In this document: positions 2,057 to 44,788 of the stretch, piece by piece
Layout of the letters: every line of letters starts with the position of its first letter
Position numbering within the stretch: position 1 is the stretch's first letter
Assembly: GCA_001792215.1 (NCBI GenBank)
Contig: MGGC01000033.1
Span: forward strand, 2,527 to 66,526
Reading direction: 5' to 3'
Length of the DNA stretch: 64,000 bases
Source: Candidatus Woesebacteria bacterium RIFCSPHIGHO2_01_FULL_38_10
Lineage (GTDB): Bacteria; Patescibacteriota; Microgenomatia; UBA8517
The notes under the pieces: generated by a model
Database searches by the model: none
What the model was told of the DNA's origin: nothing
Seen by the model: the letters and a program-made list of their open reading frames with translations, nothing else
Made by a program: the position numbers and the translations under genes

Positions 2057-2105
2057 ATCTTTGATGATAAGAAACTTATAAGACTTATCACTTTAAACCT
2101 TTTTA

Positions 2106-2693
2106 CTATAATCCTAACTCTTCTGATATTCCCTGCAAAGCAGAAAGTGCAATTTCGATAAATTCCCTCAAAGGAATTCCTAATCGAGGTGTACATTTCT
2201 CGATCTGCTTTCTATCAACGCCCGCGGCAAATGACGGAGAGTTCCATTTTTTCAATACAGAGTCCGTAGTAACCGAGGCAAGCTTTTTGTCTGGTTTAAC
2301 CAGGGTAACTGCAACAATTAAACCAGTCAGCTCATCACAACAATAAAGCGCCCATCCCATTTTTTCTCTCGGTTCTGGTACCCCCTCAACATAACCCCAA
2401 GCATGAGAAATGATAGCTTCTTTTATATCTGATTCCGCATCAATTTTCTCCAGCCATTTAATAACTTCTTTTGTGTGTTTATTTTTGGGGTCGTCCTTGG
2501 TTTCTTCATAATCTGCATCATGTAAAAGCCCGACAATCCTCCACTTCTCCTCATCATCAGCAAATCTTTTGGCTAAGGAACCCATCACAGCTTCAACAGC
2601 GTAACAGTGACGCCTCAGATTCTCATTCTTCATATGCTTATGAAGAAGTTCTAGTGCCTGATCTCTTTTCATAAATACCTCACCGCCTTTCAA
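2106..2693 (-). CDS. HD-domain phosphohydrolase.
   Basis: 195 aa with an H..HD metal-binding signature (RRHCYAVEAV ... VGLLHDADYEE). Confidence 0.65.
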   Translation of the reverse strand: MKGGEVFMKRDQALELLHKHMKNENLRRHCYAVEAVMGSLAKRFADDEEKWRIVGLLHDADYEETKDDPKNKHTKEVIKWLEKIDAESDIKEAIISHAWGYVEGVPEPREKMGWALYCCDELTGLIVAVTLVKPDKKLASVTTDSVLKKWNSPSFAAGVDRKQIEKCTPRLGIPLREFIEIALSALQGISEELGL

Positions 2694-2950
2694 AATGAAT
2701 GTCCTGTGTAATAATCATTTCCTTCATTCATATAGCTTCTGGTAACTAAAACAACCCCTTCGAATAGTTTCGTCGTTTGGCGAACCTTCAAGCCAGATAT
2801 TTCCTAAATATTTACAGATATACCTATTATTTTTGGCTAGTTTATTTAAAAAAAGTAAGGCCAAAACGGCAAATATCATAAAAAATGGTATCACCAGTAC
2901 AAAATAAATTAAATCGAAATTATTTTTTTGACTTTTCTTTTTTTTCTTTC

Positions 2951-4408: not shown

Positions 4409-4467
4409 TTTGTTTGGCTTAAGTTTAACAAACTCGAAGCGAACAGTAAATTAGACCGCTCTTAAAT

Positions 4468-4923
4468 TCATCCAATCGAGACTATTTCGTAGATTATTTT
4501 TCCAGCAGGAGCTTCAACTTCAACCTTTTCTCCAATCTTTTTACCAATTAACGCCTTTCCCAAAGGAGAAGTGTGGGATATTTTTTTTCCGGCTGGATCC
4601 GCTTCCCATTCGCCAACGATATAAAAAACATGTTCCTTCCTACCAGTCCTCAGGGTAACTTTGGTTCCCACAGAAACAGCATTTTTACTGGAACTGGCAA
4701 CAACTTGGGCATTTCTAAACACGTACTCGATCTCAGATATCCTTCCGTCAAGAAACTCTAGATCGTTCTTTGCACTATGATAATCACTATTTTCAGTAAG
4801 ATCTCCCTGAGTCCTCGCATCAGAAAGCCTCTCCACAAGTTCCGGCCTTTTAACATTTTTTAACTCCTCAAGTTCTTTCTTTAATTCTTCTAAACCTTCT
4901 TTTGTTATTTGTATTTTTTTCAT
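4468..4923 (-). CDS. greA: Transcription elongation factor GreA.
   Basis: 151 aa with an N-terminal coiled-coil (ITKEGLEELKKELEELK ... DLTENSDYHSAK) and a C-terminal FKBP-like domain. Confidence 0.9.
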   Translation of the reverse strand: MKKIQITKEGLEELKKELEELKNVKRPELVERLSDARTQGDLTENSDYHSAKNDLEFLDGRISEIEYVFRNAQVVASSSKNAVSVGTKVTLRTGRKEHVFYIVGEWEADPAGKKISHTSPLGKALIGKKIGEKVEVEAPAGKIIYEIVSIG

Positions 4924-25419: not shown

Positions 25420-28284
25420 TCATATTCTGTATTTTTGTTGCCGTTTCTTGAAGGCTTCCGATCCACCTTCTAACACCTTAACCGCTCTATTCCGAATCTT
25501 AGGTTCTTCTATTGAACCTGAGATATACGAGATTTTTCCGTTGCTATCTCTATTTGCCAAAATAACCTGTTCTGCATCGCTGTTTATAACAACATTGCCG
25601 TTATTGGATACCAAGATAATCTGTCGATACTTTTTAGCTTCTCTTATAGAACCAATAAGCTCGTCCATAATAAATTCGTTATCCAGATGATCATCGTGTG
25701 AGTCGATAATGATAGGTTTGTCTCCTTCAGCTAAATAAATCTTAATAAGAACCGTAGCTTTTTGCCCCAATGAAAGTTTATTAACGCTCGTATTTTTGTA
25801 TTTAACAACGGGGATAACTGTAAGGTAGCTGTCATATAAGAATTTATAGAAATCACCAACACTTATCACACTTGAAGTTTTTATTTTACCTTTCAAGTCA
25901 TTACTCAAGTGCTCAAGCTCATCAACTAAAACATTCACCTTAGTTTCATCGCCAGCTGCAACTGCCTTATAGAATCCTACCAAACCCTTAAACACCCAAG
26001 TATCCCCATCTTCTGGTCTAACCATAACCTTCCTATTGTCGACTACATCCTCTGCATTTTTTAGTAATTGTTTAGAATTAAAATTAACTTCTGCAACAAA
26101 ATCAAGGTCAGAAAGCACCTGTGCCTTGTCTACAGAAAATAACGAGATAATCTCATCGTATTTTTTCTTCAACTCAAGAAATGCAGTAACCATTTGAGTA
26201 AACAGCTCTTTCCTTTCTTTGATCTCAGATGCAAGCTCTTTCTTCTTTTTCTTTAAGTTTTTATTTTCCTCCTCAGCTTTATTTAGAGCAATTTCCGTTT
26301 CCCTCTTTTTATCAAGTAGTGATGTGTGACTTCGTATTCCTGCTTCGAACTGATCAATATCTTTTTGAGCTTTTCCAATGTTCTCAATTGCCTTATTTAT
26401 CTCTTGCTCGATATAATCTAATTTCTCCTGCAATTTGTCTTTATCTGCGTATGCTAAATCAGGGAAGGATTCTGGGACTTTTAACTTCTTAAGCAATTGA
26501 TTGATTGAAGAAATGTAAGAGTTAAATGTTGGAAACTCTTGGTCAATAAAAGCAATCGCCTGTGTTAATTCCTCCTTTAACTTAATGAGCAGGTCTCTCC
26601 TGTTTTTTAAGTTTGCTATGGCTTCTTGCTTTCCTTTTGCGATTTTAACCTTTTTGCTATTCAGACTTTTCTCAAGTTCTGCAATTCTCTGGTTTATGTC
26701 TTTCAATCCTACCTTGAGCTGTTTTTCTTTAACCTTTGCTTTTTCGACAATTTCTGTTTTTGTCGCTTGCTCTGTTGACTCGATTGACTGTGACTTCTGT
26801 AGAATTTTCTGTTTAAGGTCACCAATCTTTGTCTGGATTTTTGAAAATTCGTATTTTTCTACTGAATTTTGTATCTTTGGACTTTGGAAAATTAAGTCAT
26901 TAACATACTCGTCAAGATCCGATTTCTCTCCAATATACTGTTCTAATTCCCCCTGGGCGATATAAGCAATTTGCCCCTCTTCAAAAAACGATAGGTCTGT
27001 AGCTTTTTTTGAAAATGTTGTCTTATCCTTGAAAGTTAACTCAGTTTTTAAGTCAGGGTTCTGATCCGAAATTCTCTTAATAAAAGAGTTCTCGTCGCCA
27101 GAATTAACTCTATCGATGTAACAGTTAGCAATCTGGTCAACAAAGGCTGTCTTACCAGTCCCTTTTCCTCCTGCTACTGCGACTAAGCCTGGATTAAGAT
27201 TTATATCTGTCTTGGCAATAGACAATTCGTCGTTAATTTTCGACTCTGTAATTTTTATCTGGTCGATTGTTAAATTACTTCTGGGTGGTATTGGGCAACC
27301 TGGTTGGATTGAAACTCTATCTTCTGGTTCATATAAAAGCTGTTTTAATCCTTCAAATGTTGGGTCTGCTTCTACCCAACAAAATCTCAAATCACAGGCA
27401 TCAGTCTTTTCACCACACTTATGTGTAGATACACCCCTTTTTGCACACGGGACTCCCACTTCATCAATGCAATGACTGTCTGATCCGTGTATACAAGATT
27501 TCAGAGTCTTAAACTCCTCTTTAAACTTCTTTTCACCTTCTTTATAGGGTTGTTTTCCAAGACACCACTGTATAGTTTTAGGATTAGAGGAAAAAACCAT
27601 ATCCGATTTCTGAAGAAGTCCTTTTCTCATAAGATGATCTTGACCATTCCAGTCAATCAAATTCGACAGTTCTTCGGGAAGAACAAGAAGATATTTTCCC
27701 TTGAAACGGCTATCTCCACTTAATAGCTCTGTTATTTCTTCATGGCTAACAACCGCATTCGATGCACCCAATTCCAGAGGGTTTCTTCCTTTGAAGAGTG
27801 CATGTTGAGATATAAGTTGTTTTCCTAAAACAGTTAAGTTGGATAGTTTTAATTTGCGACTCTCATCCTTGCTCTGGGGGTTACCTTCGTAATAAAAATG
27901 GAGATCATGTAGGAAATGTTCTTCTATATCTTGAGGAGATACTTCATCAGAAAAAATTACATGGTAATTTAGTCTTCGTGGATCAGTTCCGTCTTTTCTG
28001 CTTGAAATGACGCTGTTTAATCGAAACTCAATGTTCGGCAGAACCAACGAGATGTTTTTCAGTCTTCCTGCTTTTCTAAACTCCAGAATCTTCTTATATC
28101 CTTCTATTGAGAAGTAATCCGTTATTCCTACAGCAGCCAGATCAAGCCCCTCAAGTTTTTTAAGAAACTTATTCCAATCTGGCTCACCATTTGCCAGCTT
28201 AGGATATTTATTAGCGAGTATTGAAAGAGGACTGTGAACATGCAAATCCCACTTTCGCCATTCAGAACCTCTTGGATATTCCAT
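25420..28284 (-). CDS. PHP-domain phosphoesterase fused to an ABC/SMC-like ATPase with long coiled-coils, resembling the single-gene Ppl (PHP-like) anti-phage architecture.
   Basis: 954 aa. N-terminal PHP motifs (WDLHVHSP...AAVGITDY...). Walker A VAVAGGKGTGKTAFVDQ. Extensive coiled-coil. C-terminal ABC signature-like LSLGQK followed by Walker B PIIIDSHDDHLD. Confidence 0.7.
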   Translation of the reverse strand: MEYPRGSEWRKWDLHVHSPLSILANKYPKLANGEPDWNKFLKKLEGLDLAAVGITDYFSIEGYKKILEFRKAGRLKNISLVLPNIEFRLNSVISSRKDGTDPRRLNYHVIFSDEVSPQDIEEHFLHDLHFYYEGNPQSKDESRKLKLSNLTVLGKQLISQHALFKGRNPLELGASNAVVSHEEITELLSGDSRFKGKYLLVLPEELSNLIDWNGQDHLMRKGLLQKSDMVFSSNPKTIQWCLGKQPYKEGEKKFKEEFKTLKSCIHGSDSHCIDEVGVPCAKRGVSTHKCGEKTDACDLRFCWVEADPTFEGLKQLLYEPEDRVSIQPGCPIPPRSNLTIDQIKITESKINDELSIAKTDINLNPGLVAVAGGKGTGKTAFVDQIANCYIDRVNSGDENSFIKRISDQNPDLKTELTFKDKTTFSKKATDLSFFEEGQIAYIAQGELEQYIGEKSDLDEYVNDLIFQSPKIQNSVEKYEFSKIQTKIGDLKQKILQKSQSIESTEQATKTEIVEKAKVKEKQLKVGLKDINQRIAELEKSLNSKKVKIAKGKQEAIANLKNRRDLLIKLKEELTQAIAFIDQEFPTFNSYISSINQLLKKLKVPESFPDLAYADKDKLQEKLDYIEQEINKAIENIGKAQKDIDQFEAGIRSHTSLLDKKRETEIALNKAEEENKNLKKKKKELASEIKERKELFTQMVTAFLELKKKYDEIISLFSVDKAQVLSDLDFVAEVNFNSKQLLKNAEDVVDNRKVMVRPEDGDTWVFKGLVGFYKAVAAGDETKVNVLVDELEHLSNDLKGKIKTSSVISVGDFYKFLYDSYLTVIPVVKYKNTSVNKLSLGQKATVLIKIYLAEGDKPIIIDSHDDHLDNEFIMDELIGSIREAKKYRQIILVSNNGNVVINSDAEQVILANRDSNGKISYISGSIEEPKIRNRAVKVLEGGSEAFKKRQQKYRI

Positions 28285-28286
28285 AT

Positions 28287-30608
28287 TTATTTTTTATCAA
28301 TCTTATAAGCGCTGCTGATGATAGCGTCAAAACTGTTAATTCTGCTTACTGCTGTATGGGGCAGGAGTTTATAAATCCACTGCTTGTTGGTTGCTCCAGA
28401 GGCGATTTTACACCATTCTTCAGCTTGTTTTGCCTTCTCCAAGACCTCTGGGTCTTTTTTGTCGAGTTTACTTTTATCTTTAACCTCCACCAAGTAATTA
28501 GCGTCTTTTCTTTCAACAATAAAATCGGGGTTGTAGTTACCGTAAATATACTTAATCGGTAGTTGCCCGTTCCTAAGTCTCAACCAGCTCACTACAGATT
28601 TATCTCTTTCCAGAGAGTCCGCTAACAGTTTCTCCTGGGTTGAATCAAAAACATAGGCTGGGTAAACACTTTTGTCATATCCCTTGATGATGTTGCCTCT
28701 GGATTCTGCTTCGCTCACTTCGTCTTTATCCAATGGCACAGCCGAGACCTTTACGACTTTCAGATAAGGTTCAAACGGCAACTGCTCATCAAGAACTCCA
28801 AACTTGATTCTTGTTTGTTCTTGGAGCTTCTCCTGAAGCTGAGGCAGAATATCATTTAAGATTGTCTGTTCATGCAGTTTAACCAGTTTCGATAGCTCTT
28901 TTCCTGTTACCTGGAGTTGATCAAGGTAGTGTTTTACGATCTTTTGTAAGATTGCCTTGAAAGAGATGTCAAACTCGGACATCTCCAAGATAATCAACCT
29001 AACGATGCGATTAACAGGATTGATTTCTTCTTTGATCTCGACTTCTCCAGCGTCTTCTGTTTGTCTGGAAACAATGTCTGTCTTAACCATTCTTGGCTTA
29101 ATCTTCTTTAATTCCTCCAAACGCAACTTAATCGGGAAGAACTCCAGTTTATTGCTGGAATAAACTTTCGCTTCGACAGCAGGTATCTTGATCCAAAGTT
29201 TTTTATTACCTGTTGGTTTGATCTCAACAGTCTTTAATTCTTCTTTCTTTTCAGCCTTTTTAACCCCAATCCCCTCAGCCACTTCATGGGCAACCGCTAT
29301 CACTCTGGCAAAGTTGTCATGGGAGATAATGTCGAGCGAGTCAAGTTCCTCAACGCCTGAAAGCTCGCCAAACGGTAGCCTAAGCCCTCTGCCGATAGTT
29401 TGCTCGATCAAAGTCTTACTGATTGAAGCCCTGAAGGGGATAATGGTGTAGACATTTTTGACATCCCAGCCTTCTTTGAGCTTGTCAACATGAACAACAA
29501 TCTCGTTTTTGTTAACTGGATAAGGTTCTTCCAAACGGAGAAGCTGATTGATTGAATCTACCTCGCTCTCGCTGGTTACCAATAGAGTTTTGTCCTTGTA
29601 ATAGCCATCAAAGAAACTGTCGCTTTCGATTAGAGCTTTAACATCTTTGGCGTGCTGAATGTTCTTGGTCGTTAGGAGAGTAACTGGTAAAACAAACGGC
29701 AATTTATTGTTTTTGCAGTATGCCTCGATAAGTGCTTTCTTCTCTCGGTGTCTCCTGATACCATCCTCAAGTTTCACTAACTCAAGGTCACCTTTGTAGG
29801 TGTAGTCATCACTTCTGGCTATAACATACGGAATCTTGATATAACCACCCTTAGCGCCATTGCCGTTGTGTAAGCTCGCCAAAGCCTTCTTAGAATCGTT
29901 TATGGCGTCTCCAAGGGTGTAAGAATAAACCACATTGTCGCTAATGGGTGTTGCCGTAAATTCCAGTCCCAACTCTGGTTTGAGATGGTTGATCGCTTTG
30001 ATCGACTTTACTCCCCGATACCTGTGACTCTCGTCCATTAAAATAACCAGATCCTTTTGCTGGAGAAGCTCGGCAAAGCTCGACCCCAGTGTTTCTTGAT
30101 AGCGGTGGAATCTAAACTCGACATCGGTTCTTTCGTTGAAAATCTTCTGGATATTAAAAACATAAATGTTAACCGCATCAAAAAGCTGATTGCCAAAGTT
30201 AGCATAGGTGTAATTTTCTCCTGTAATCAAATTAAACATTGGGAAATCAGTCAAACCATCCAGGACATATTTTTTGCTTGAAGGGGTAAAGTTATCGATA
30301 GTTTTGGTATAAATGGTTTCTCCTGGAGTTAGAATGAAAAAGTCTTTTAGCCCCTTCGTGTAGTAAAGATAAGCGATCATGGCTGCCATCAGTCTTGTTT
30401 TCCCCACACCTGTTGCCAGAGCAAAAGTAAAGGAAGGAAACTCTGTATCAAACTTCACATTTCCCACCAACCTCGCCTCAATATCTTCCAATTTGTCCCT
30501 GTCTAACTTAACCCCAGAAAGGATTGCGTCTAATTTGATCAATGAAAGCTCTTGTGGCTTTCTCAGGCTTAATTCTTTGGTTAATTTTTCTGTTATGTTC
30601 ATGCTCAT
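28287..30608 (-). CDS. res: Type III restriction enzyme, Res subunit (SF2 helicase-like ATPase plus C-terminal PD-ExK endonuclease).
   Basis: 773 aa. Walker A ALATGVGKTRLMAAM, DEAH-like MDESHRY, C-terminal D...LVEVKDK nuclease motif. Translationally coupled to the Mod gene. Confidence 0.85.
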   Translation of the reverse strand: MSMNITEKLTKELSLRKPQELSLIKLDAILSGVKLDRDKLEDIEARLVGNVKFDTEFPSFTFALATGVGKTRLMAAMIAYLYYTKGLKDFFILTPGETIYTKTIDNFTPSSKKYVLDGLTDFPMFNLITGENYTYANFGNQLFDAVNIYVFNIQKIFNERTDVEFRFHRYQETLGSSFAELLQQKDLVILMDESHRYRGVKSIKAINHLKPELGLEFTATPISDNVVYSYTLGDAINDSKKALASLHNGNGAKGGYIKIPYVIARSDDYTYKGDLELVKLEDGIRRHREKKALIEAYCKNNKLPFVLPVTLLTTKNIQHAKDVKALIESDSFFDGYYKDKTLLVTSESEVDSINQLLRLEEPYPVNKNEIVVHVDKLKEGWDVKNVYTIIPFRASISKTLIEQTIGRGLRLPFGELSGVEELDSLDIISHDNFARVIAVAHEVAEGIGVKKAEKKEELKTVEIKPTGNKKLWIKIPAVEAKVYSSNKLEFFPIKLRLEELKKIKPRMVKTDIVSRQTEDAGEVEIKEEINPVNRIVRLIILEMSEFDISFKAILQKIVKHYLDQLQVTGKELSKLVKLHEQTILNDILPQLQEKLQEQTRIKFGVLDEQLPFEPYLKVVKVSAVPLDKDEVSEAESRGNIIKGYDKSVYPAYVFDSTQEKLLADSLERDKSVVSWLRLRNGQLPIKYIYGNYNPDFIVERKDANYLVEVKDKSKLDKKDPEVLEKAKQAEEWCKIASGATNKQWIYKLLPHTAVSRINSFDAIISSAYKIDKK

Positions 30609-32272
30609 ACTTTGAATTTCTTGAGTAAAACATCAGGAATTTTCCTGATTTCTACATTTTCTGGTAATTTAATTTTACTCGATATGGTTTTGGCATAAAC
30701 GATCAGATAATCGGCTGCATCGCCAACTTCTCGCAAGATAGCACTTACATAATCTTGGTTGAGATATTGCTCGGTTACATGAGCGATAGTCCTTCCTGAA
30801 ACGCCGTGTAGGGCATTATTTGGATTAAGGAGTTTGAATCCTTCGACCTTCAAAACTGCCCGAATAAGAGTGCCGTTATATACTTTTGGATTTAGAACTG
30901 TCAATCTCAAGTCGTCATCTGCTACAAAAAGACTGTCCCCCAATTCAAAATACTTAAATCCACTCCCGCCCCTCCAATTTATTTCCTTACTGATTCCAGT
31001 CTGATCCTTACCCTCGACAACCTCTTTTAATCGCTTTAAGCAGTGCGTTTTAACTTGATCGCTAAACTCAACCATGATCCACTTTCTTCCCATCTTGTGT
31101 GCAACTGCCCCTGTAGTTCCCGAACCCGCAAAACTGTCAAGAATCCAATCGCTCTCTTTTGATCCTATCTCTAAGATTCTCTTTATCAACTTTTCAGGTT
31201 TCTTGCCCTTGGGAAATTCCACATTCCCTTCTTTTGCTATTCCTTGCCAACCGATGTCGTCCCAGAAGTTCGTTAGAGGTTCAACAATGCCCTTCTCGCC
31301 ATTTACTGTCCTAACTTTATCCTCTAAAAAGAGGATTCTATTTCCTTTATAGAAAAACATATCACTAAAATCTTCTCGTTTAAGTAAGTAGACTTTTTCA
31401 CCATCACTTTTTGATTTATCGATAAGTTCTCTTGCTGCCTGACTCACTCCCTTATAGTTTGGTAGTGCAAAACGGATCACCCCTTCTGGATTACCCACCG
31501 CAAACTTAACAACCTCTTTTTCAAATACTTTACTGGACAGTTTTTTCCTTGCCTCTGATGCAGAAGAGTATCCCAGCTCAGTTGCAACTTTATCCGCTAA
31601 ATTGATAAATCGCCATTTTTGATAATCCTCTGAGTAGTTCTCGATGAACTTGCTGTATTGCCTATCATATTTTTCTCTTAACACATGTTGTTGTTTGTAA
31701 CGCCATTCAGTTTTGTCTTTGCAGTAAACGATGAGATATTCGGTCACATTTACAGGAGCTGGGTTTATTGCCTTATGTCCTGTAGCAGCACTCCTTTTTA
31801 TGCTTATATTAACTACACGATTCTTACGACCAAATATCTCATCAAGGAGAACGCTCAAATAGGCAACCTCCGTATCATCAATTTCAACAAAAATTACTCC
31901 ATCTTTTTTTAATAAGTCGTGAAGAAGTTTTAGTCTGTCCCTCATCATCGTGAGCCAGATAGAATGCTCTAAGCCATCATCGTAGTATTCAAACGCAGAA
32001 CCAGTATTGAATGGAGGATCAATATAAATCAGCTTAATTTTGTTTCTAAAATCTTGCAGCAATGCCTTAAGCGCTAATAGATTATCGCCCTTTATGAGCA
32101 TGTTTTCAGCATCTCTATCACCGTAAGCTGCCTTTTCGAGAAATATACGAGGTTCAGATACTCTGGGGTCTTTTTTGTCTACCCAAAGATATTTTTTCTC
32201 TTTGAGATCATAGTAAAGACTTTTGTCTTTGTGATACCAGGTTAATTCTAATTTTTTATCGTTTTTAGTCAT
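30605..32272 (-). CDS. mod: Type III restriction-modification Mod subunit (N6-adenine DNA methyltransferase, beta-class motif order).
   Basis: 555 aa. Motif IV IYIDPPFNTG precedes motif I DSFAGSGTTGAVA. Overlaps the Res start by 4 nt. Confidence 0.85.
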   Translation of the reverse strand: MTKNDKKLELTWYHKDKSLYYDLKEKKYLWVDKKDPRVSEPRIFLEKAAYGDRDAENMLIKGDNLLALKALLQDFRNKIKLIYIDPPFNTGSAFEYYDDGLEHSIWLTMMRDRLKLLHDLLKKDGVIFVEIDDTEVAYLSVLLDEIFGRKNRVVNISIKRSAATGHKAINPAPVNVTEYLIVYCKDKTEWRYKQQHVLREKYDRQYSKFIENYSEDYQKWRFINLADKVATELGYSSASEARKKLSSKVFEKEVVKFAVGNPEGVIRFALPNYKGVSQAARELIDKSKSDGEKVYLLKREDFSDMFFYKGNRILFLEDKVRTVNGEKGIVEPLTNFWDDIGWQGIAKEGNVEFPKGKKPEKLIKRILEIGSKESDWILDSFAGSGTTGAVAHKMGRKWIMVEFSDQVKTHCLKRLKEVVEGKDQTGISKEINWRGGSGFKYFELGDSLFVADDDLRLTVLNPKVYNGTLIRAVLKVEGFKLLNPNNALHGVSGRTIAHVTEQYLNQDYVSAILREVGDAADYLIVYAKTISSKIKLPENVEIRKIPDVLLKKFKV

Positions 32273-32274
32273 AT

Positions 32275-32937
32275 TTATAAATTCTCTGCTAAGAATCTCT
32301 GCACGCCTTCAAGCATAGCCTTAACATCTTCTGTTTTGTAATCCTCAAACTTACCATGATCAGCGCTGTCTCTTATTGCCTTCCACGCCTGAATTTGTTT
32401 TTGAAGCAAGCGACTATAAACTTCTTTATCTGCGAGCTTTGTATTGAGTGATCCTATGTCATCGCCCGATTTGACATCGACAGTATGTTTCTGTGCAATT
32501 TGTCTCAGTCCATTTTCTAATACTGCTCCCACCAAAGAAGCAGCAGAGTCTTTGTAGCTGTTATCCAAGAGATGCTGAGCCATTTCGATAAAATCTGTGA
32601 AGATTTCAGCGCTTACTAAGTTTCTTACTCTTGTTAAATAACCAAGTTCCAAATCTTCTTTTAATGCCGTGAGGATGCCAATACCGTGGTCTACATCGCT
32701 TGGGTGGGCTGTTTTTACCCCGTCAACAAAGTTTTTGTAGTAAGGGCTGTCTTCTCCACAAACCATAGATATAAAGTTTTGTGAGTTATTCTTCCATTCG
32801 TGAAATAGAGGGCTATTGACCGTGGAGGGTGCAATAACATGCTCCGAACTGTTATTTCTTTTTGTTGCTGCGACTTTTTGCCCTTTTTCGAGCAGTTGTC
32901 CAACCCGCTCAATTAGCTTATTTGTTGTTGTGTTCAT
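32275..32937 (-). CDS. Hypothetical protein with an Rx4H motif in a predicted helical C-terminal region, a possible HEPN-like (DUF4145-type) partner of the R-M genes.
   Basis: 220 aa. AIRDSADHGKF matches the HEPN Rx4-6H signature. Sits between the HTH gene and Mod. Call made by motif inspection only. Confidence 0.4.
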   Translation of the reverse strand: MNTTTNKLIERVGQLLEKGQKVAATKRNNSSEHVIAPSTVNSPLFHEWKNNSQNFISMVCGEDSPYYKNFVDGVKTAHPSDVDHGIGILTALKEDLELGYLTRVRNLVSAEIFTDFIEMAQHLLDNSYKDSAASLVGAVLENGLRQIAQKHTVDVKSGDDIGSLNTKLADKEVYSRLLQKQIQAWKAIRDSADHGKFEDYKTEDVKAMLEGVQRFLAENL

Positions 32938-33125
32938 ATTTTTATTTTCATTAGCTTTTCTAAATCTCCAGGTCTGTATCTTCGATCTCCTCGCTTGTTG
33001 AGTCTTATAGCCTTCAGTTTACCGCTTTTATCCCATCGTCTAAGTGTCTCCACATGCACATTTAACACCTCAGCAGCTTGTTTAATGGTTAGTAGTTTTG
33101 GTAACTCGTCTTTATTCTTCGGCAT
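32934..33125 (-). CDS. Excisionase-family / MerR-like helix-turn-helix DNA-binding protein (copy 1), first gene of the defence operon.
   Basis: 63 aa. LTIKQAAEVLNVHVETLRRWDKSGKLKAIR is the classic Xis/AlpA-type HTH. Overlaps the next gene by 4 nt. Confidence 0.75.
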   Translation of the reverse strand: MPKNKDELPKLLTIKQAAEVLNVHVETLRRWDKSGKLKAIRLNKRGDRRYRPGDLEKLMKIKI

Positions 33126-33173
33126 AACTCAACTTAATTATACAAAAATTAAAGGAAAAAGGGTATACTAACC
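33126..33173 (-). promoter_or_regulatory. Putative promoter for HTH copy 1 (TATAAT-like -10 element); conserved with the region upstream of HTH copy 2.
   Basis: Sense-strand sequence upstream of the ATG reads ...TTTTTGTATAATTAAGTTGAGTT-ATG. The same GTATAATTA(A/T)GTTGAG core occurs upstream of the 36221 start codon. Confidence 0.35.
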
Positions 33174-34097
33174 TTGATGCGTAAAGTCGTCCCTCCGAAA
33201 CTCGTATGGAAGTATATCGGTGATGAGAGTTCTGAAAAGCGGAAGGAGTCGGAGGAGAGGGTAAGACAGGTTTATGATCGTATTTTTACGGCAGCAAGGG
33301 AGAATATGCGGCAGCGGAAGCATCAAGAAATTGGTAAAATTAAAGGGTCTAATATGAAGATGAAAAATAAGTTTGCTGTAGTTACGGGTTCATCTACTGG
33401 CATCGGTCAGGCTATTGCCATTGAGTTAGCCAAAAAAGGTGCTTTTATTGCTCTGGCTGGTCGCACGCAGGACAAGCTACTAAAAACAAAGAGTTTAATT
33501 ACTGAGAATGGTGGACAGGCAGAAGTATTTTTAGGGGATTTTACCAAGTTGGATTCGCTGGAAGCTCTTATTGCCTTAATTAAGCAAAAAACAGATAAAG
33601 TAGATGTCTTGGTGAATGTGGCTGGTATTTGGCATGGCGAGGATGAGGTTTATGCAGGTAAGGATTTTGAGTCTTTTCCTAAGCAAGTTATTCTTGACAC
33701 TTACGCAGTTGGCTTAACTGCGCCAACACTTCTTGCTCATGCTTTTATCCCCCTTATGCCAAAAGGAGGAAGGATTATCAATATCTCTGGAACATTTGAA
33801 AACGGAGCAAAAGGCTGGTTACCGTATTTTGTCTCCAAGAAGGGTATCGAAGATTTAACCATTGGACTTGCCGAGGAATTGAAGGATAAAGGAATACTGG
33901 TAAACGCCATTTCTCCTTCTGACACGGCTACTGATGCTTATAAAAAGTATTTTCCTCAGTATATTGGAGAAGTAATTGATCCGAAGGAGATTGGTAAATA
34001 TGCGGTATATTTGTGTTCAGAAGAAGCAAACGATATTACTGGCAAGGTTTTTGTCCTGAAAAAAGGCAAAGAACCCTATGAAGGTTATCACACTTAA
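33174..34097 (+). CDS. Short-chain dehydrogenase/reductase (SDR).
   Basis: Rossmann motif AVVTGSSTGIGQAIA and a catalytic YxxxK region (YFVSKKGIEDL). The true start is probably the internal Met near 33355 (MKMKNKFAVVTG); the listed N-terminal extension is doubtful. Confidence 0.8.
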   Translation: MMRKVVPPKLVWKYIGDESSEKRKESEERVRQVYDRIFTAARENMRQRKHQEIGKIKGSNMKMKNKFAVVTGSSTGIGQAIAIELAKKGAFIALAGRTQDKLLKTKSLITENGGQAEVFLGDFTKLDSLEALIALIKQKTDKVDVLVNVAGIWHGEDEVYAGKDFESFPKQVILDTYAVGLTAPTLLAHAFIPLMPKGGRIINISGTFENGAKGWLPYFVSKKGIEDLTIGLAEELKDKGILVNAISPSDTATDAYKKYFPQYIGEVIDPKEIGKYAVYLCSEEANDITGKVFVLKKGKEPYEGYHT

Positions 34098-34695
34098 TAT
34101 GAGCAAGGTTAAAGTTTTAATTGAAGGTTATGCTAAGAAAACCAAAGAAGGATGGTTAGCCTCATCTTCTACTACTCTTATTGAAGACGGTGGGAAAAAG
34201 ATAATTGTCGATCCTGGGATCAACAGGGAGTTACTGTTTCGAAAACTTAAAGATCAAGGCTTGACTCCTAACGGCATCGATATTGTCTTTATGACCCATT
34301 ACCACCCAGACCACATGTTTTTGACTTCAGTTTTTGAGAAAGCCATGGTAGTTGATGGCGATACCGTTTATGAAAAAGATAATGAAACTGGGTATGAGGG
34401 TAGAGTTCCAGGAACGAGCCTGGAGGTAATCCTTACTCCTGGACACGCTCATGAACACGCTGCCTTACTTGCTACAACCGAGAGGGGGAAAATCGTTGTT
34501 GCTGCGGATGTTTTTTGGTGGACAGACGAGGAAAAGCAACAAACGGATAATGTTAAGGCTCTGGTTAATAAGGAAGATCCTTTTACTAAGGATCGGGAAG
34601 CCTTGAAAGCAAGTAGAAGGAAAGTTTTAGAGATAGCTGATTGGATTATCCCTGGACATGGTAAAATGTTTAGGAATCCTAAAAAGAAAGGATAA
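34078..34695 (+). CDS. Metallo-beta-lactamase-fold hydrolase.
   Basis: 205 aa with the HxHxDH motif (MTHYHPDHMF) and later His/Asp ligands (PGHAHEHAA). Confidence 0.75.
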   Translation: MKVITLNMSKVKVLIEGYAKKTKEGWLASSSTTLIEDGGKKIIVDPGINRELLFRKLKDQGLTPNGIDIVFMTHYHPDHMFLTSVFEKAMVVDGDTVYEKDNETGYEGRVPGTSLEVILTPGHAHEHAALLATTERGKIVVAADVFWWTDEEKQQTDNVKALVNKEDPFTKDREALKASRRKVLEIADWIIPGHGKMFRNPKKKG

Positions 34696-34697
34696 AA

Positions 34698-35183
34698 ATG
34701 AAAAAGTTAATTCCACCAGATTTCCAAATACCAGAAGTTTTAGAAGCAGACAGGTTTAGATTGAGAATGCTGAAAGTTACAGATGTGGTTAAAGATTATG
34801 ATGCTGTAATGACCAGCATTGATCATCTCCAGGGCATATTCGGTGTTCGCTCTAAATGGCCTTCAAAAGATTTGACATTTGAGCAAGACTTGATTGATTT
34901 AGGCTGGCATCATAAAGAGTTCCAAACACGCTCATCCTTCGCTTATACGGTTATGAACCCAGGTGAAAGTCAATGTTTGGGCTGTGTCTATATTTTTCCT
35001 CCGACAAAATCTGGCTTTGATGCTGAAGTTTATATGTGGGTTAGAAAAAGTGCATACGATGAGGGCTTAGATCCCATTTTATACGAAACAGTTAAAAACT
35101 GGATTGCAGAAAAGTGGCCTTTTAAGAAAGTTGCCTACCCTGGAAGAGAGATCGATTGGGAAACATGGAAGTCTTTGGAATAG
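34698..35183 (+). CDS. Hypothetical protein, possibly a GNAT-like acyltransferase.
   Basis: 161 aa. Weak resemblance to the GNAT core (YTVMNPGESQCLGCVYIFP). Low-certainty call. Confidence 0.35.
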   Translation: MKKLIPPDFQIPEVLEADRFRLRMLKVTDVVKDYDAVMTSIDHLQGIFGVRSKWPSKDLTFEQDLIDLGWHHKEFQTRSSFAYTVMNPGESQCLGCVYIFPPTKSGFDAEVYMWVRKSAYDEGLDPILYETVKNWIAEKWPFKKVAYPGREIDWETWKSLE

Positions 35184-35563
35184 CGGGCAAGGATTAAGGT
35201 GTTGCTACAAAAAGTTTTAGGTTACGGCTAAAAGCTGCTGGGTAGATTTAAGTGTTGTTTCTGGAAATTCCAGGATGTCTAACCAGTTTGCTGACCTAAA
35301 ATCGTTCCATTTGTCCAGCAAGACTGGACGCTAAGCGACCGTAAGCTCTCAAATGGGTCGATTTGGCTTGCTAAATGTCCACTTTCTTATTAGGAGTCTC
35401 GGACCGTACCCTTGTTATTCAGCGGCCTTTTTTACTCTCGAAGATACGACCTTACGGTCGTGAAGATAGAGCTGTTCGCTGAAAAGCTGAATTAGTTGTC
35501 GTTTTCTCTCAATATCTCCATTACTTAAGATGTTCCTTGCGTAGTCCCTTACGTCCATTGTTT

Positions 35564-36031
35564 TCATCTGGGTTGATATCTTGCCTTAGGATCATCACCG
35601 TCAAACCTATTACTTGCTTCAAGTTTACAGGCAGACGCCAGGATTTCACTTGCGGTCGAAGTGCTGGTGTCAGCGGGAAGAATACAATGGAGTTGAATAC
35701 CTGTTTTACCCTCATATGTTGTGAGTTCAAAACCTGGGAAAATTGTTAATTCATAACCTTCTTGTTCCAGTTTTTTTGCTTCTGTGCAAAGGCTTTCCAG
35801 CACAGAGTCTTTGGGGTCATTAACAAAGTTGTGATCTGTAAGCGCAATAGCATCAAGTTTCTGCCTCCTGCAAAAAGCAACAAATTCTTTCGCAAAATCT
35901 TCTTTTGTATAGTCTTTACTTATTTTCTTTCCCTTCCAACGAGCATCAAGGCAAGTATGACAATGTAAGTCGCACTTAAAGAATTTAGCCTCTTTAAGCT
36001 GATATTTATCTGTGTTTGTATAGTCAGTCAT
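35564..36031 (-). pseudogene. Truncated PHP-domain gene, paralogous to the N-terminus of the 954-aa PHP-ATPase; the ATPase part is missing.
   Basis: 155 aa. KCDLHCHTCLD...AIALTDHNF...ELTIFPGFEL...GIQLHCILPADTS parallels WDLHVHSP...AVGITDY...ISLVLPNIEF...LNYHVIFSDEVS of the 25420..28284 protein. It is followed by about 380 bp with no ORF. Confidence 0.55.
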
Positions 36032-36221
36032 ATTTATTTTTCTTTAATAGATTCTCCAAATCTCTTGGGTCATAACGCCTATCGCCACGCTCGTTGACCC
36101 GAATGGCTTTCAGTTTTCCGCTTTTACCCCACCGTCTCAATGTCTCCACATGGACATTCAGCACTTCAGCTGCTTGGCGGATAGTTAACAGTTTTGGTAA
36201 AGTCGTCTTATTCTTCGGCAT
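36024..36221 (-). CDS. Excisionase-family / MerR-like HTH protein (copy 2), a near-identical paralog of 32934..33125.
   Basis: 65 aa. MPKNKTTLPKLLTIRQAAEVLNVHVETLRRWGKSGKLKAIRVNERGDRRY versus MPKNKDELPKLLTIKQAAEVLNVHVETLRRWDKSGKLKAIRLNKRGDRRY. The upstream promoter-like sequence is also conserved. Confidence 0.75.
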   Translation of the reverse strand: MPKNKTTLPKLLTIRQAAEVLNVHVETLRRWGKSGKLKAIRVNERGDRRYDPRDLENLLKKNKYD

Positions 36222-36286
36222 ACCTCAACATAATTATACAATTTTTGACCAAAAAGAGTTATACTTGTTTTGGTAAAATAAAAAGA
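36222..36286 (-). promoter_or_regulatory. Putative promoter for HTH copy 2, conserved with 33126..33173.
   Basis: Sense strand reads ...TTGGTCAAAAATTGTATAATTATGTTGAGGT-ATG. The TATAAT box sits at the same distance from the start codon as in copy 1. Confidence 0.35.
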
Positions 36287-36675
36287 ATGAAAACTGTTGT
36301 AATTTGCGGTAGCAGAAGGTTTAAAAAAGAAATAAGAGAGTTTGGAAGCAAACTGATTAAAGCAGGAATTGTTGTCTTTTCGCCCTATCTCCATGAAGGT
36401 AAAGACGAGTGGGATAAACTATCACTCCAATATAAAAAGTTCGTTGCTTTGGGTCTTACTCACAACCATTTTTATAAAATCAGGATGGCTGATGTTGTGT
36501 TTGTCTACAACAAAGATGGTTATGCTGGTGTAAGCACTGCCTTGAGCTTGGGTATGCTGTTGCTCTTGGGAAGCCAATTTACGCCCTATCGGATAAAGAT
36601 GAAGAACTTTGCAGACTAACTCTGTTCCGTGAGGTAGTTAAAACACCAAAAGAACTTATAAATAAACTAAAATGA
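36287..36675 (+). pseudogene. Nucleoside 2-deoxyribosyltransferase-like (SLOG/NDT-fold) protein with an apparent -1 frameshift near 36545.
   Basis: Starts MKTVVICGSRRFKKEIREF... At 36544 the reading frame that continues the family-like sequence (ELGYAVALGKPIYALSDKDEELCRLTLFREVVKTPKELINKLK*) is the -1 frame. In that frame the stop overlaps the next gene's ATG (ATGA at 36672). Confidence 0.5.
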
Positions 36676-37109
36676 AAATCGTAATTTGTGGCTCAATGGC
36701 TTTTGCACAGGATATGCTTAATGCTAAATGTCTTCTGGAGGAGAAAGGCTATCGAGTTGTTCTCCCCGAAGGCACAGATGAATACTGCAAAGGAAAATTA
36801 AAGAAACTTGCAAATGGATGGGGAACGGTTGAGGGAGCAAAGAGGAAGATCGATAACGATCTTATAAAAAAGCATTATAACGAAATAAAAGACGGTGATG
36901 CCATTTTAGTTATAAACAAGAGTAAAAACGGAATAAAAAATTACATCGGTGGTAATAGCTTTCTCGAAATGGGCTTTGCCTACATTCTGAATAAGAAGAT
37001 TTACACGCTAAATGATCTTCCAGACAGTCTTCCTATCTTTTATCAGGAACTTATTGCTATGCAACCTATATCACTTAGAGGAGATTTAAATAAAATTAAA
37101 AATGGGTAA
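36672..37109 (+). CDS. Nucleoside 2-deoxyribosyltransferase-like (SLOG/NDT-fold) protein, paralog of the upstream gene.
   Basis: 145 aa. Starts MKIVICGSMAFAQDM. The Rossmann-like layout is typical of the NDT/LOG superfamily. Confidence 0.6.
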   Translation: MKIVICGSMAFAQDMLNAKCLLEEKGYRVVLPEGTDEYCKGKLKKLANGWGTVEGAKRKIDNDLIKKHYNEIKDGDAILVINKSKNGIKNYIGGNSFLEMGFAYILNKKIYTLNDLPDSLPIFYQELIAMQPISLRGDLNKIKNG

Positions 37110-37570
37110 AGAATGTGACCATACCAGCGTTGGTATGATAATCAAAAGAGGAGAAGAGACACTTCTTATCGAGCGCAAGAAGCCTCCTTTTGGATTTGCC
37201 CCTCCTTGCTGGACATGTAGACAATAAAGGTTCTTTTGAAAATGCAGCCAAAGAAGAAGTTGAGGAGGAAGTAGGATTATCCCCGAAAGACATAAAACTT
37301 CTTTTGGAAGGGAGAAAGGACAATTCTTGCAGGCGGGAAGGTGGCTCTTGGCATTACTGGAAAATATACCAGGTTGATGCGGATAGAGATATAAAACGGA
37401 GTGAAGACGAAACAAAGCAAGCTGGATGGTTTAGTCTCGATCAAATAAAATCACTTGCCCAAAAAACTGAAAGATATTTAGCTGGAGAAATTCCTGAAGA
37501 AGAGTGGAAACAATCTCCTGGAATCGAACCTGTCTGGCTTGAATGGTTTAGAGAACTTGAGATGGTTTAA
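37102..37570 (+). pseudogene. Nudix hydrolase with an apparent +1 frameshift at a C-run near 37200.
   Basis: The N-terminal piece (MGKECDHTSVGMIIKRGEETLLIERKKPPFGF) is in frame 1. The Nudix box (GHVDNKGSFENAAKEEVEEEVGL) continues in frame 2 (ORF 37190..37570). The junction gcccctcc looks like a one-base-longer homopolymer. Confidence 0.55.
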
Positions 37571-37590
37571 TTTAATATAAATCAAAAACT

Positions 37591-38167
37591 ATGGCTAAGG
37601 ATGACGTTGAAATAGAAATAAAAATATCAACTGACAAAAGAACTTTTGGGAAGGTTAAGCAATACCTTAAAGAACACGCTAAGTTTATCGGTAGCTCACA
37701 GGAAATGGACAAATACTAATTCTCCCCATAGAGACTTCTTAGAGCTTAAACACCCCGAAGAATACCTCAGAATAAGGGTAAAGGGTGGCGGTGGTGCTAT
37801 AACATACAAAAAGGTTTACTTTAATGAAAAAGGTTGGAAAACCCATGCTGACGAATACGAAAGCAAGATAGATGATACGGGACAACTTGAGAAAATTTTC
37901 TCAGTTTTAAACTTTGACAATTTTTTGACAATCGACAAACAAAGAGAAAGTTACGAATTTGAGGACAGATTTGAAATCGATTTGGATATTGTGAAAGGAC
38001 TGGGGTATTTTGTTGAAATAGAGGCAATGAAAGATTTCGGCGGAAGAGACGCAACTTATGATGAAGTTGCTAACTTTGCCCAAAAATTAGGCCTGAATTC
38101 TAAAAACCAAGATAATGATGGCTATGTCCTTATGATTATGAAGAAAAAAGGATTAGCGAAAAATTAA
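37591..38167 (+). pseudogene. CYTH-domain (triphosphate tunnel metalloenzyme) protein with an apparent +1 frameshift near 37720.
   Basis: The N-terminal CYTH signature EIEIK (MAKDDVEIEIKISTDKRTFGKVK...) is in frame 1 and ends at TAA. The body continues in frame 2 (SPHRDFLELKHPEEYLRIRVKGG...FEIDLDIVKGLGYFVEIE). Confidence 0.5.
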
Positions 38168-38556
38168 AACGATTCTTCAAACTCTACTCCTATCGGACAA
38201 TGATCTGAACCCCTCACTTCTGAAAAAATAGACGCACTTGTTAATTTGGGCTTAATTTTTCGGGAGACAAAAGCATAATCTATTCTCCAGCCCAGACCTC
38301 GTTCTCGGGCGTGGGGAAAATATAACAGCCAGGTGTAATTGCCACTTTCTTGATGAAACTGTCTAAAAGTGTCAACAAAACCCAACTCTATCAACCTGTC
38401 TATTTCTTTTCTCTCTTCTGGCGTGAACATTATATTGTTTTTGTTTTGCTTCGGTCTTGCTAAGTCAACCTCTTTGTGAGCGATGTTAAAATCGCCGATT
38501 AAGATAGCCCTTTCATTTCGAACCTTACCCAAGTAGTCAAAGAGGGCAGAATACAC
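38164..38556 (-). pseudogene. xth: Exodeoxyribonuclease III (Xth), C-terminal half only; N-terminal catalytic half missing.
   Basis: 130 aa with the C-terminal ExoIII/AP-endonuclease motifs (GDFNIAH, WRIDYAFVS, GSDHCPIGVEF). The upstream DNA (38557-38648) is non-coding, then a SET-domain gene follows on the other strand. Confidence 0.65.
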
Positions 38557-38648
38557 TTGGAGTAACTGGTTATGGGCTCGAATGGGTCTGAACCGAGATA
38601 CTCAGCTCACCCTCCCAAAGACAACAACATCTTTGTTATAATCACATC

Positions 38649-39056
38649 ATGAAAAATATTCTCGCTTCAAACAACGTATATATCAGTAAATCAAGAATTC
38701 TTAATGCGGGCCGAGGGGTTTTTGCCAGACGTGATATTAAAAAAGACGAAATAATTGAAAGATGCCCTGTTATTGAAGTTCCAAAATACGATACGTCTAA
38801 TTTAAGAGAAAGTATTCTTGTTACTTATTTCTTTTATTTCGGAAAAAATAAGCAACGTTTAGCAATTGCCTTGGGTTTTGGATCAATATATAACCATACT
38901 TATAAACCAAACGCAAGATTCAAGACAAAACAAAAAGATATGATAATTGATTTTATTGCCTTAAATGATATTAAAAAAGACGATGAGATAACATTTAATT
39001 ACTACAATCGTAGTAAACCCAAAGACAAGAAAAGTCCATTATGGTTTGAAGTGTGA
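38649..39056 (+). CDS. SET-domain protein (putative lysine methyltransferase).
   Basis: 135 aa with GRGVFA, the NH-xx-PN motif (YNHTYKPNARF) and an ELTFDY-like motif (DDEITFNYY). Confidence 0.7.
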   Translation: MKNILASNNVYISKSRILNAGRGVFARRDIKKDEIIERCPVIEVPKYDTSNLRESILVTYFFYFGKNKQRLAIALGFGSIYNHTYKPNARFKTKQKDMIIDFIALNDIKKDDEITFNYYNRSKPKDKKSPLWFEV

Positions 39057-39090
39057 AATTGCCTACAGAATAATCAGGTACTAGAGCGGT

Positions 39091-39507
39091 ATGCCCAATC
39101 ATTATCACTTGCTGGTTAAACAGCTTGAAGATAGCGGAGTGAGGAAATTCATATCAAATTTTCAAAATGGATTTGCTAAGTTTTTTAATATTTGAAATAA
39201 AAGACCTGGTCCTTTATTCCAACGACCATTTAAGGCAAAACATCTTTCAAAAGATGAGGAATTTTTGCATGTGTCAAGATATATTCACTTAAACCCTGCG
39301 ACTTCTTTTGAAATGTCTTTAGATAATCTGAAAAATTTAAATATTACTTCACTACCTTTTTATATGAACAATATCCAAAATAACATGATAAAAATTGAAC
39401 CGATCTTAAAATTAATTGGTTCTCCTGAAAAATATTGGCAGTTTTTAGAAAATCAGTTGGATTATCAAAGAAAATTAAATAAAATAAAACATCTAATATT
39501 GGATTAA
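39091..39507 (+). pseudogene. Degenerate IS200/IS605-like (COG1943, Y1 HUH) transposase/RAYT remnant, N-terminally truncated with an in-frame TGA.
   Basis: HuH motif MPNHYHLLV, then GPLFQRPF...EEFLHVSRYIHLNP (catalytic Tyr region). In-frame TGA at 39193-39195. About 60 aa that normally precede the HuH motif are missing. Confidence 0.55.
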
Positions 39508-39861
39508 TTAAAGTAAAGAGAGTTGTGTACGCATATAACACCCGAAGGGTGATTTTTTTAATAATTTCAGTATTTGTCTAACTAAAGAAACTTTTTTAAC
39601 AACCTTTCTCTTCAGAGGTTTTTCCAACCAGACCGAAAGAATGAGCCATTTTCCCTTATCGTTCTTCTTTACTACAACTTCTATCTCTTGATTTGCAAAA
39701 GTACGCTGATAAACCCAAACCCCTTTCAAACTTTCATATCTTGATTTATCGGGAAACCTCCAAGTTGCCCAAACATCGCCTTGTTTTATTCCCCGCTCGC
39801 GCATGCGTTTAATAGCATGCTTAGTAAAAATTAAACCTTTATATTCATTTTGCATTGTCAA
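39508..39861 (-). CDS. DUF4258-like small protein (toxin-like).
   Basis: 117 aa. FTKHAIKRMRERGIKQGDV matches the conserved H..eRM.eRgI core of DUF4258. The gene overlaps its upstream partner by 4 nt. Confidence 0.45.
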   Translation of the reverse strand: MTMQNEYKGLIFTKHAIKRMRERGIKQGDVWATWRFPDKSRYESLKGVWVYQRTFANQEIEVVVKKNDKGKWLILSVWLEKPLKRKVVKKVSLVRQILKLLKKSPFGCYMRTQLSLL

Positions 39862-40184
39862 CCTTTTCTGAAGATCTCCTGAAGAATCTCTTGGGAAAAA
39901 ACTTTAGTTTCCTTTTTTATTAAATCTTCGATATCATCTTCAACCAATTCTTCAATAAATTGGAGAATCTTTTCATCATATGGACATTCATAAAACAGAG
40001 ATAAAAATTGATGATGATGTTCTTTGGGTAGTCTATCTAAAATACACCCCAATACTCTATGATGAACCATCTCGTCAATAATCTGCCAAATTTCTTCTTT
40101 TTCTTCAGGGGTTTCTGTAATTTTACTTATCTCCCTTTCAAGATTATCCAAAGTTATTAAATGATCGTAAAAAAGCTTCGACAT
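39858..40184 (-). CDS. Hypothetical acidic protein (108 aa), possible partner (antitoxin?) of the DUF4258-like gene.
   Basis: ORF translationally coupled to 39508..39861. Confidence 0.4.
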   Translation of the reverse strand: MSKLFYDHLITLDNLEREISKITETPEEKEEIWQIIDEMVHHRVLGCILDRLPKEHHHQFLSLFYECPYDEKILQFIEELVEDDIEDLIKKETKVFSQEILQEIFRKG

Positions 40185-44592: not shown

Positions 44593-44788
44593 GAAAGATG
44601 ACCTTTAAGAATAATTCAAAGTTTAGAGTCCAAAAGGAAAAATTACAACAGGAGGTAATTGCCCGAGATTTCTAAAGATTAATCGCTACACCCAAAATAC
44701 TATTTTTAGAGTTGCAAACCAGAGTATTTTGGGTTCATAATTGTTTAACGAGATTCATAAACTCGAGTTAAACAAGTATATCAACAAT

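Follow-up and report, generated by a model that had tools for sequence, protein, structure and literature searches.

In the 64,000-nucleotide (nt) stretch of Candidatus Woesebacteria bacterium RIFCSPHIGHO2_01_FULL_38_10 analysed here (contig MGGC01000033.1, positions 2,527-66,526 of the forward strand; hereafter the window), four closely packed genes on the plus strand (36287-38167) encode two paralogous proteins that resemble nucleoside 2-deoxyribosyltransferases (NDT; g1 and g2), a Nudix hydrolase (g3) and a CYTH protein (g4). The population from which the window derives belongs to Candidatus Woesebacteria (Patescibacteria, or Candidate Phyla Radiation, CPR) and lives in Rifle groundwater. 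We consider it probable that these genes do not form a working module and that they represent two pieces of nucleotide metabolism, each conserved in its own right, which became neighbours by chance and have recently decayed. Three of them, g1, the Nudix gene and the CYTH gene, are each interrupted by a small indel, leaving g2, the most widely conserved of the four, as the sole unbroken member.

The composition of the conserved unit emerges from the neighbourhoods of the homologous genes. In a survey of 80 metagenome loci around the Nudix gene, an NDT-like gene is found on the same strand and at most 200 nt away in 69 loci; among the 53 loci whose flanks reach 450 nt or more on each side, the figure is 48. 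The order and number of the genes vary (g1-g2-Nudix, g1-Nudix-g2, or a leading Nudix gene with two or three g2-like genes after it), a gene for Q_salvage (PF10343-like, DUF2419) is adjacent in 12 of the 80 loci, and one Paceibacterota metagenome-assembled genome, the only such case, contains a single open reading frame (ORF) of 308 amino acids (aa; L017, 5965-6891) that fuses a g2-type NDT-fold domain to a Nudix domain, a Rosetta-stone link between the NDT-like and Nudix families, and is followed by Q_salvage. CYTH is present in a single locus (L155), where a distant relative (34% identity) stands in front of g1-Nudix. Given these adjacencies and the near absence of CYTH, the conserved unit is the Nudix gene together with one to three NDT-fold paralogues, and it is widespread in Patescibacteria.

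The g2 gene tells the same story from its own side. We found 1918 homologues and, in species-representative genomes, 569 confirmed places; the neighbourhoods were counted over 6 kb at the best 80 of these 569 loci, with L005 and L006 in addition, and the 80 loci carry titles of Patescibacteria or DPANN archaea, bar some generic or probably mis-binned ones. CYTH lies within 6 kb of g2 in none of the 80. Among the g2 loci the g1-g2-Nudix triad occurs only in the closest relatives (L005, L006 and L007), and a Nudix gene is also next to or near g2 in L017, L018, L056 and L069. The intact cluster by which the sequence-only reading proposed to judge its own idea is therefore known in part, as the NDT-NDT-Nudix triad exists elsewhere and the four-gene set was not found. 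The commonest neighbours of g2, whose identities were assigned from the sequences of cluster representatives, are LysS (18 loci), SerS (16), GreA (14), SecA (9) and dCMP deaminase (7), and a cytidylyltransferase-like gene appears near g2 as 11 ORFs in 8 loci. With LysS, SerS, GreA, SecA and dCMP deaminase around it, the genomic setting of g2 is a housekeeping one. A GreA-LysS-HD-SerS block flanks g2 in many Patescibacteria; in the window this block (827-4923, compared with 11779-16804 of L005) lies about 31 kb from g2 and the synteny is broken.

The CYTH gene (g4, 37591-38167, plus strand) belongs to different company, even if only 20 nt separate it from the Nudix gene. None of the six CYTH loci examined (L087-L090, L092 and L093) contains a Nudix or an NDT-like gene. 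In the close CYTH contigs L087 and L092, homology to the window extends from the CYTH start codon (37585-37591) to position 38562/38563, inside an exonuclease III (ExoIII) gene, and the genes upstream of CYTH in relatives are other, unrelated ones; more distant CYTH loci have different neighbours again. Because homology begins at the ATG of CYTH itself and the upstream genes differ, the Nudix-CYTH junction is specific to the window lineage and the cluster of four is a juxtaposition of two units. The partner of CYTH in close relatives is ExoIII: L087 has an unbroken 251-aa ExoIII gene convergent with CYTH, and L092 has the same arrangement with ExoIII running off the contig end. This convergent pair is conserved only among close relatives. 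What the window keeps of it is a remnant on the minus strand (38164-38556), still convergent with CYTH, which encodes the C-terminal 130 aa of about 251 and aligns with the PF03372 profile (225 positions) only from position 138 to its end. The place held in relatives by the N-terminal half of ExoIII is taken here by a gene for a SET-domain protein (38649-39056, plus strand; 135 aa, unbroken; PF00856, E=8e-16), which lies between the ExoIII remnant and a transposase remnant described below.

When repaired, g4 encodes 192 aa, as do its intact orthologues in L087, L092 and L093 (82-86% identity), and is of the triphosphate tunnel/class IV adenylate cyclase-like type. It resembles the triphosphate tunnel metalloenzymes (TTM), such as CyaB and the Sulfolobus enzyme SaTTM Saci_0718 (7ns8, the best solved relative), in scoring 73.1 bits against PF01928 CYTH (cut-off 23.2) and 94 bits against TIGR00318 cyaB (cut-off 57.95) and in possessing an EIEIK (ExExK) motif at residues 7-11. 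It differs from them in being cut by a 2-nt deletion after 37716, so that a TAA codon (37717-37719) severs EIEIK from the tunnel domain and the two no longer lie on a single polypeptide, and also in that its partner in close relatives is ExoIII and not Nudix/NDT. The intact protein may be a cyclase or a triphosphatase, its sequence being compatible with either.

The sequence-only reading had assigned the four co-directional genes to their families correctly: ORF analysis places all of them on the plus strand, hidden Markov model searches matched PF05014 (g1), PF00293 NUDIX and PF01928 CYTH above their cut-offs, and BLASTP relates g1 to g2. The first gene (g1, 36287-36675, plus strand) is 129 aa long when a 1-nt deletion between 36540 and 36541 is repaired (the printed ORF stops at 36619), scores 35.2 bits against PF05014 Nuc_deoxyrib_tr (gathering cut-off 28.8) and has intact orthologues of the same length in L005 (83% identity) and L098 (95%). 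Its paralogue g2 (36672-37109, plus strand) is an unbroken 145-aa protein of flavodoxin-like NDT fold, 31% identical to g1 (E=4e-12), that matches no Pfam, NCBIfam or PHROG model, the PF05014 threshold thus being unmet by g2 alone, and that gave chance-level matches only in a PDB sequence search (E of at least 0.5). Its AlphaFold model (pLDDT, predicted local distance difference test, 91) is nevertheless informative, as the first Foldseek matches are to NDT (2a0k), BcmB (4jen), NDT (6evs), DNPH1 (8rpt) and YtoQ (8of6), and the top 19 PDB matches are all of these types or near relatives, with probability 1.00 and TM-scores of 0.4-0.6. In 33 aligned g2 homologues D76, E99 and a YIGGN motif are invariant, and g1 carries D and E in the corresponding motifs, whose equivalence with catalytic residues is suggested by motif position. 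The Asp, and the Glu of the (L/F)LE(L/M)G(Y/F)A motif, would occupy the places of the catalytic acid and nucleophile of NDT and DNPH1, and the N-terminal ICGS motif of g2 may resemble the phosphate-binding FCGSIRGG of DNPH1.

The two proteins are therefore close to the NDT/DNPH1 (Rcl)/BcmB-MilB superfamily by the PF05014 score of g1, by the nearest structural matches of g2 and by an Asp and a Glu conserved at presumably equivalent places, and g2 stands apart from it in escaping Pfam, NCBIfam, PHROG and PDB sequence searches and in TM-scores of about 0.45-0.6. The SLOG/LOG fold that had been proposed for them did not survive, since no SLOG-type Pfam model (LOG PF03641, DprA, YpsA, STALD, LSDAT or LD_cluster) matches g1 or g2 at E<=0.1, and SLOG-type structures (DprA 4ljk, MoCo carrier 6y01) rank far below the preferred NDT-type ones in the Foldseek list of g2. 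Because acidic residues expected of NDT-type enzymes are kept and SLOG/LOG models are unmatched, g1 and g2 look like enzymes and not like sensors.

The Nudix gene (g3, 37102-37570, plus strand) is divided by an extra T at 37206/37207, and its reading frame is not intact; when repaired it encodes 155 aa and reaches 58.3 bits against PF00293 NUDIX (gathering threshold 21.1). More than 1000 homologues of 155-166 aa and 60-85% identity exist in Patescibacteria, with intact orthologues of 155 aa in L005 and 156 aa in L098. The nearest solved relatives (PDB E of about 1e-4) are the 8-oxo-dGTPase domain 2yyh, plant NUDX1 and Ap4A hydrolases. The likeness to MutT, Ap4A hydrolase and NUDT1-like enzymes lies in the clear PF00293 match and in an EEVxEE core that is invariant in the g3 family (G37...E52-V-x-E55-E56-x-G58-L in the Nudix box). 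It differs in belonging to a subfamily specific to CPR, whose members share a conserved C-terminal extension (...SPGIEPVWLEWF), in a Nudix box that appears to depart from the canonical GX5EX7REUXEEXGU (by manual alignment, G43 stands in for the first E and E51 for the R), and in being frameshifted in the window.

Could the Nudix/NDT-like operon itself be a defence system, depleting or modifying nucleotides against phages instead of salvaging them? In the window, as in L098, its immediate neighbours include Ppl-like defence genes, and its variable paralogue number and gene order and its recurrent pseudogenisation are both typical of defence loci. The loss of NDT-like paralogues does recur, since g1 is independently broken in another Patescibacteria population (L114-L116; 4195-4582 in L114) by an in-frame stop and a 1-nt insertion and is reduced to fragments in L121 (4398-4558); the g2-like and Nudix genes beside these broken copies look intact. 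We nevertheless judge an anti-phage role improbable. The Nudix protein is 60-85% identical across several Patescibacteria lineages, and g2 adjoins aminoacyl-tRNA synthetase genes in many genomes. We also looked for membership of the four genes in known defence systems and rejected it: the four proteins have no PADLOC match at E<=0.01 and no effector domain in Pfam, PHROGs offers only generic NDT and Nudix families for them, and no g2 relatives were found in IMG/VR.

The three frameshifts were fixed to the base by nucleotide alignment with intact relatives (L005, L006 and L007 for the first two sites; L087, L092 and L093 for the third). At site 1, a single base is lost between 36540 and 36541, two codons ahead of the conserved Glu of g1 (LELGYA motif); at site 2, one additional T stands at 37206/37207; at site 3, TA (2 nt) is lost after 37716, which makes the TAA stop in CYTH. 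The alignment confirms the proposal that three of the four genes need a frame change, with the directions -1, +1 and +1, and the TGA of repaired g1 indeed overlaps the ATG of g2 (ATGA, 36672-36675). The second event had been placed at a C-run near 37200, and its direction and locality are right; the extra base is a T after CCTCC, the length of the C-run being unchanged. Around all three indels the sequence is free of long homopolymers, long A/T runs and slippery heptamers.

Are these frameshifts assembly or consensus errors, all four genes being functional? With one lesion per gene, repaired lengths equal to those of the orthologues and low ratios of nonsynonymous to synonymous substitution (dN/dS), they have the look of it. 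By exact-protein look-up we found eight further contigs of the population, from different samples and assemblers, of which one (L004) covers no site. The printed indels are present in every assembly that covers them: site 1 is identical in six (L001, L002, L094, L095, L096 and L097), site 2 in six (L001, L002, L003, L094, L095 and L096) and site 3 in three (L001, L002 and L094). These assemblies include ANAN16 scaffolds and contigs labelled k127 and k141, and the slightly diverged haplotype L097, which departs from the window at two other positions, still lacks the base at site 1. A collection of 15 billion proteins contains no exact match to the repaired proteins and does contain the truncated products (two NCBI accession sets and other sources). 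As the same alleles occur in assemblies from separate Rifle samples, the indels are real and common in the population; with no long homopolymer at the sites and the intact allele absent from the protein collection, consensus error has become a very improbable explanation.

The sequence-only reading had seen in the four genes a single nucleotide-centric conflict or signalling module, in which CYTH makes a signal, Nudix processes it and SLOG-type proteins sense it, now broken or mis-assembled. Burroughs et al. reportedly described nucleotide-centric systems in 2015. The idea had some appeal: the genes are co-directional, tightly packed and preceded by a cassette head made of an HTH_17 gene and a Ppl fragment, the distant CYTH of L155 does stand ahead of g1-Nudix, and NDT-like domains act as defence effectors elsewhere, as in retron Ec86 (PMC13276650). 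It has been largely refuted by the neighbourhood counts, and we hold it for highly unlikely: (i), not one of the 80 g2 loci has a CYTH gene, and only one of the 80 Nudix loci does; (ii), CYTH orthologues have other upstream neighbours and their homology to the window begins at the CYTH ATG; (iii), there is no SLOG/LOG match, effector, PADLOC match or IMG/VR relative; and (iv), g2 has housekeeping neighbours and a near-ubiquitous distribution in CPR and DPANN, and the g2 and Nudix families are not patchily spread but common in Patescibacteria, with defence genes next to them only in the window lineage and L098. The likeness to nucleotide-centric conflict systems (Thoeris ThsA-SLOG and Aravind-group predictions) is thus one of general theme only, that of nucleotide-processing domains near defence genes, whereas the window cluster is without a SLOG match, a conserved signal-generating enzyme or an effector and has a housekeeping-like distribution.

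The lesions appear to be young. Measured against intact relatives, dN/dS ranges from 0.03 to 0.15 in the three broken genes and from 0.04 to 0.08 in the unbroken g2, and lineage-specific amino-acid changes in the window genes are no higher than in relatives. The possibility that they are old pseudogenes was rejected on the absence of excess change in these relative-rate and dN/dS tests, which have little power at dS>=0.7. A low dN/dS with a single lesion per gene fits a recent event and suggests that g1, Nudix and CYTH were inactivated recently; the broken genes are presumably not expressed. Continued expression, whether by transcriptional slippage or by programmed ribosomal frameshifting at these sites, is very improbable, since, clean as the frames otherwise are and despite their signature of purifying selection, the events are of three kinds (-1, +1 and -2 nt), slippery heptamers and long A/T runs are lacking, all close relatives encode these proteins in a single frame, and a search of 34500-40000 against Rfam gave no match at E<=0.1. 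Promoter-like and terminator-like sites in the same interval are no commoner than in shuffled sequence.

How would the intact operon work? From the fold likeness to DNPH1 and BcmB, the invariant Asp and Glu of g2, the Nudix fusion and the frequent Q_salvage neighbour, the most likely mode is a predicted pathway that leads from Nudix to the NDT-fold enzymes. The Nudix hydrolase would produce 5'-monophosphates from nucleoside diphosphates, triphosphates or conjugates of these, and the NDT-fold enzymes would then cleave or transfer the N-glycosidic bond of these monophosphates, as DNPH1 and BcmB do. The products would be bases and (deoxy)ribose-5-phosphate, and the purpose either salvage or the removal of aberrant nucleotides from the pool. 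The DUF2419/Qng1 family, to which we relate the Q_salvage neighbour, releases queuine from queuosine-5'-phosphate. CPR bacteria are not known to synthesise nucleotides de novo, which makes a scavenging or pool-cleaning role for the operon plausible.

Several observations weigh against the picture of two chance neighbours, recently decayed, and against the pathway predicted for one of them. The Nudix box appears non-canonical, the equivalents of MutT E44 and R52 being G and E in a manual comparison with the MutT motif. The proposed pathway is a prediction from fold and family resemblance, and neither a solved structure nor an assay was found in the PDB or in the literature for the g2 family or for this Nudix subfamily. 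The operon abuts a Ppl-like defence gene both in the window lineage and in L098. The combination of low dN/dS with one lesion per gene would also fit expression by recoding, although recoding at three sites appears unlikely because the indel types differ and slippery sites are lacking. A minority intact allele may exist in the population, the evidence consisting of assemblies and not of reads. Finally, one would not expect CPR bacteria to lose so conserved a gene without having paralogues at other places in the genome, and the rest of the 64-kb window contains none that could compensate.

The four-gene block belongs to a decaying stretch that borders a variable defence island. On its upstream side, on the minus strand and divergent from g1, lies an HTH_17 (MerR/excisionase-like) gene (36024-36221; Pfam assignment via the gene table of L094), followed by a Ppl-like fragment with a PHP domain (35564-36031, minus strand), the N-terminal 155 aa of a truncated gene, which matches PADLOC Ppl at E=8.9e-9 over profile positions 5-118 of 894 and PHP weakly, and downstream of which no reading frame continues. 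The block had been said to follow the head of a defence cassette: a defence remnant does adjoin it, and the head itself amounts to the HTH_17 gene and this 155-aa fragment. A 954-aa protein with PHP and SMC-like ATPase domains (25420-28284, minus strand; PADLOC Ppl, 83.9 bits) is encoded at the end of a type III restriction-modification (R-M) cassette. We considered the fragment as its relative and rejected this, there being no significant similarity between the two, and the fragment is thus what remains of a second, different gene. In L098, the closest relative, the orthologue of the 954-aa protein is 94% identical and shortened to 431 aa.

The Ppl fragment, the half ExoIII gene and a transposase remnant together mark the surrounding region as decaying. 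The last of these (39091-39507, plus strand), of the IS200/RAYT-like tyrosine transposase family as assigned by eye from its motif, is N-terminally truncated and contains an in-frame stop, its frame reading ...FFNI-stop-NKRPGPLFQRPFKAKH...HVSRYIHLNP... (stop context FFNI-stop-NKRPG); Pfam gave no match on its two fragments. It is followed on the minus strand (39508-40184) by a DUF4258-domain gene, toxin-like by name, and then a gene for a 108-aa partner, with which it may form a toxin-antitoxin pair where the decayed stretch ends.

The island itself is variable. In L098 the HTH_17 gene and the Ppl-like gene abut g1 directly, and the 7.7 kb between the Ppl-like and HTH_17 genes of the window (28296-36033) are absent (junction at L098 1717-1719); they hold the type III R-M Res and Mod genes, a HEPN-like gene, a second HTH_17 gene, a short-chain dehydrogenase/reductase, a metallo-beta-lactamase, a 161-aa ORF and the Ppl fragment. 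Like the gene at 36024-36221, the second HTH_17 paralogue (32934-33125) stands at the head of a defence cassette on the minus strand, an arrangement that suggests the HTH_17 gene as the point of cassette exchange. A 103-nt non-coding segment (35217-35319) is 96% identical to L098 4813-4915 despite different flanking genes (coding neighbours are 84-92% identical); its plus strand folds into a long hairpin (z = -2.5) with no Rfam match, and it could be a small RNA, the end of a mobile element or a recombination site. All differences between the window and L001, another assembly of this population (100 kb), fall into two tight clusters, one of 8 single-nucleotide polymorphisms (SNPs) in 46 nt within the type III Mod gene (30899-30944) and one of 10 SNPs and 2 indels in 21 nt (44702-44722), which look like strain-level hotspots or traces of local recombination.

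A plausible generator-processor-sensor module has thus been dissolved by counting neighbourhoods, and frameshifts that looked like errors are real in every assembly examined. A useful by-product is the linked Nudix/NDT-like operon of Patescibacteria, which is undescribed: a literature search on an operon of DUF2419, Nudix and deoxyribosyltransferase genes, or on CPR nucleotide salvage with Nudix, returned nothing relevant. This operon, including the Pfam-less g2 family that is also present in DPANN archaea, is a reasonable candidate for part of the nucleotide scavenging of reduced CPR organisms, and the recurrent loss of its members suggests redundancy among the paralogues. It is tempting to speculate, tentatively and with rather less than even confidence, that the Patescibacteria-wide operon constitutes an undescribed pathway from scavenged nucleotides, possibly modified ones such as queuosine-5'-phosphate, to bases and (deoxy)ribose-5-phosphate. 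If so, the recent decay of the operon in this Woesebacteria population, with g2 alone kept, would record a change in the cell's demands on its host.

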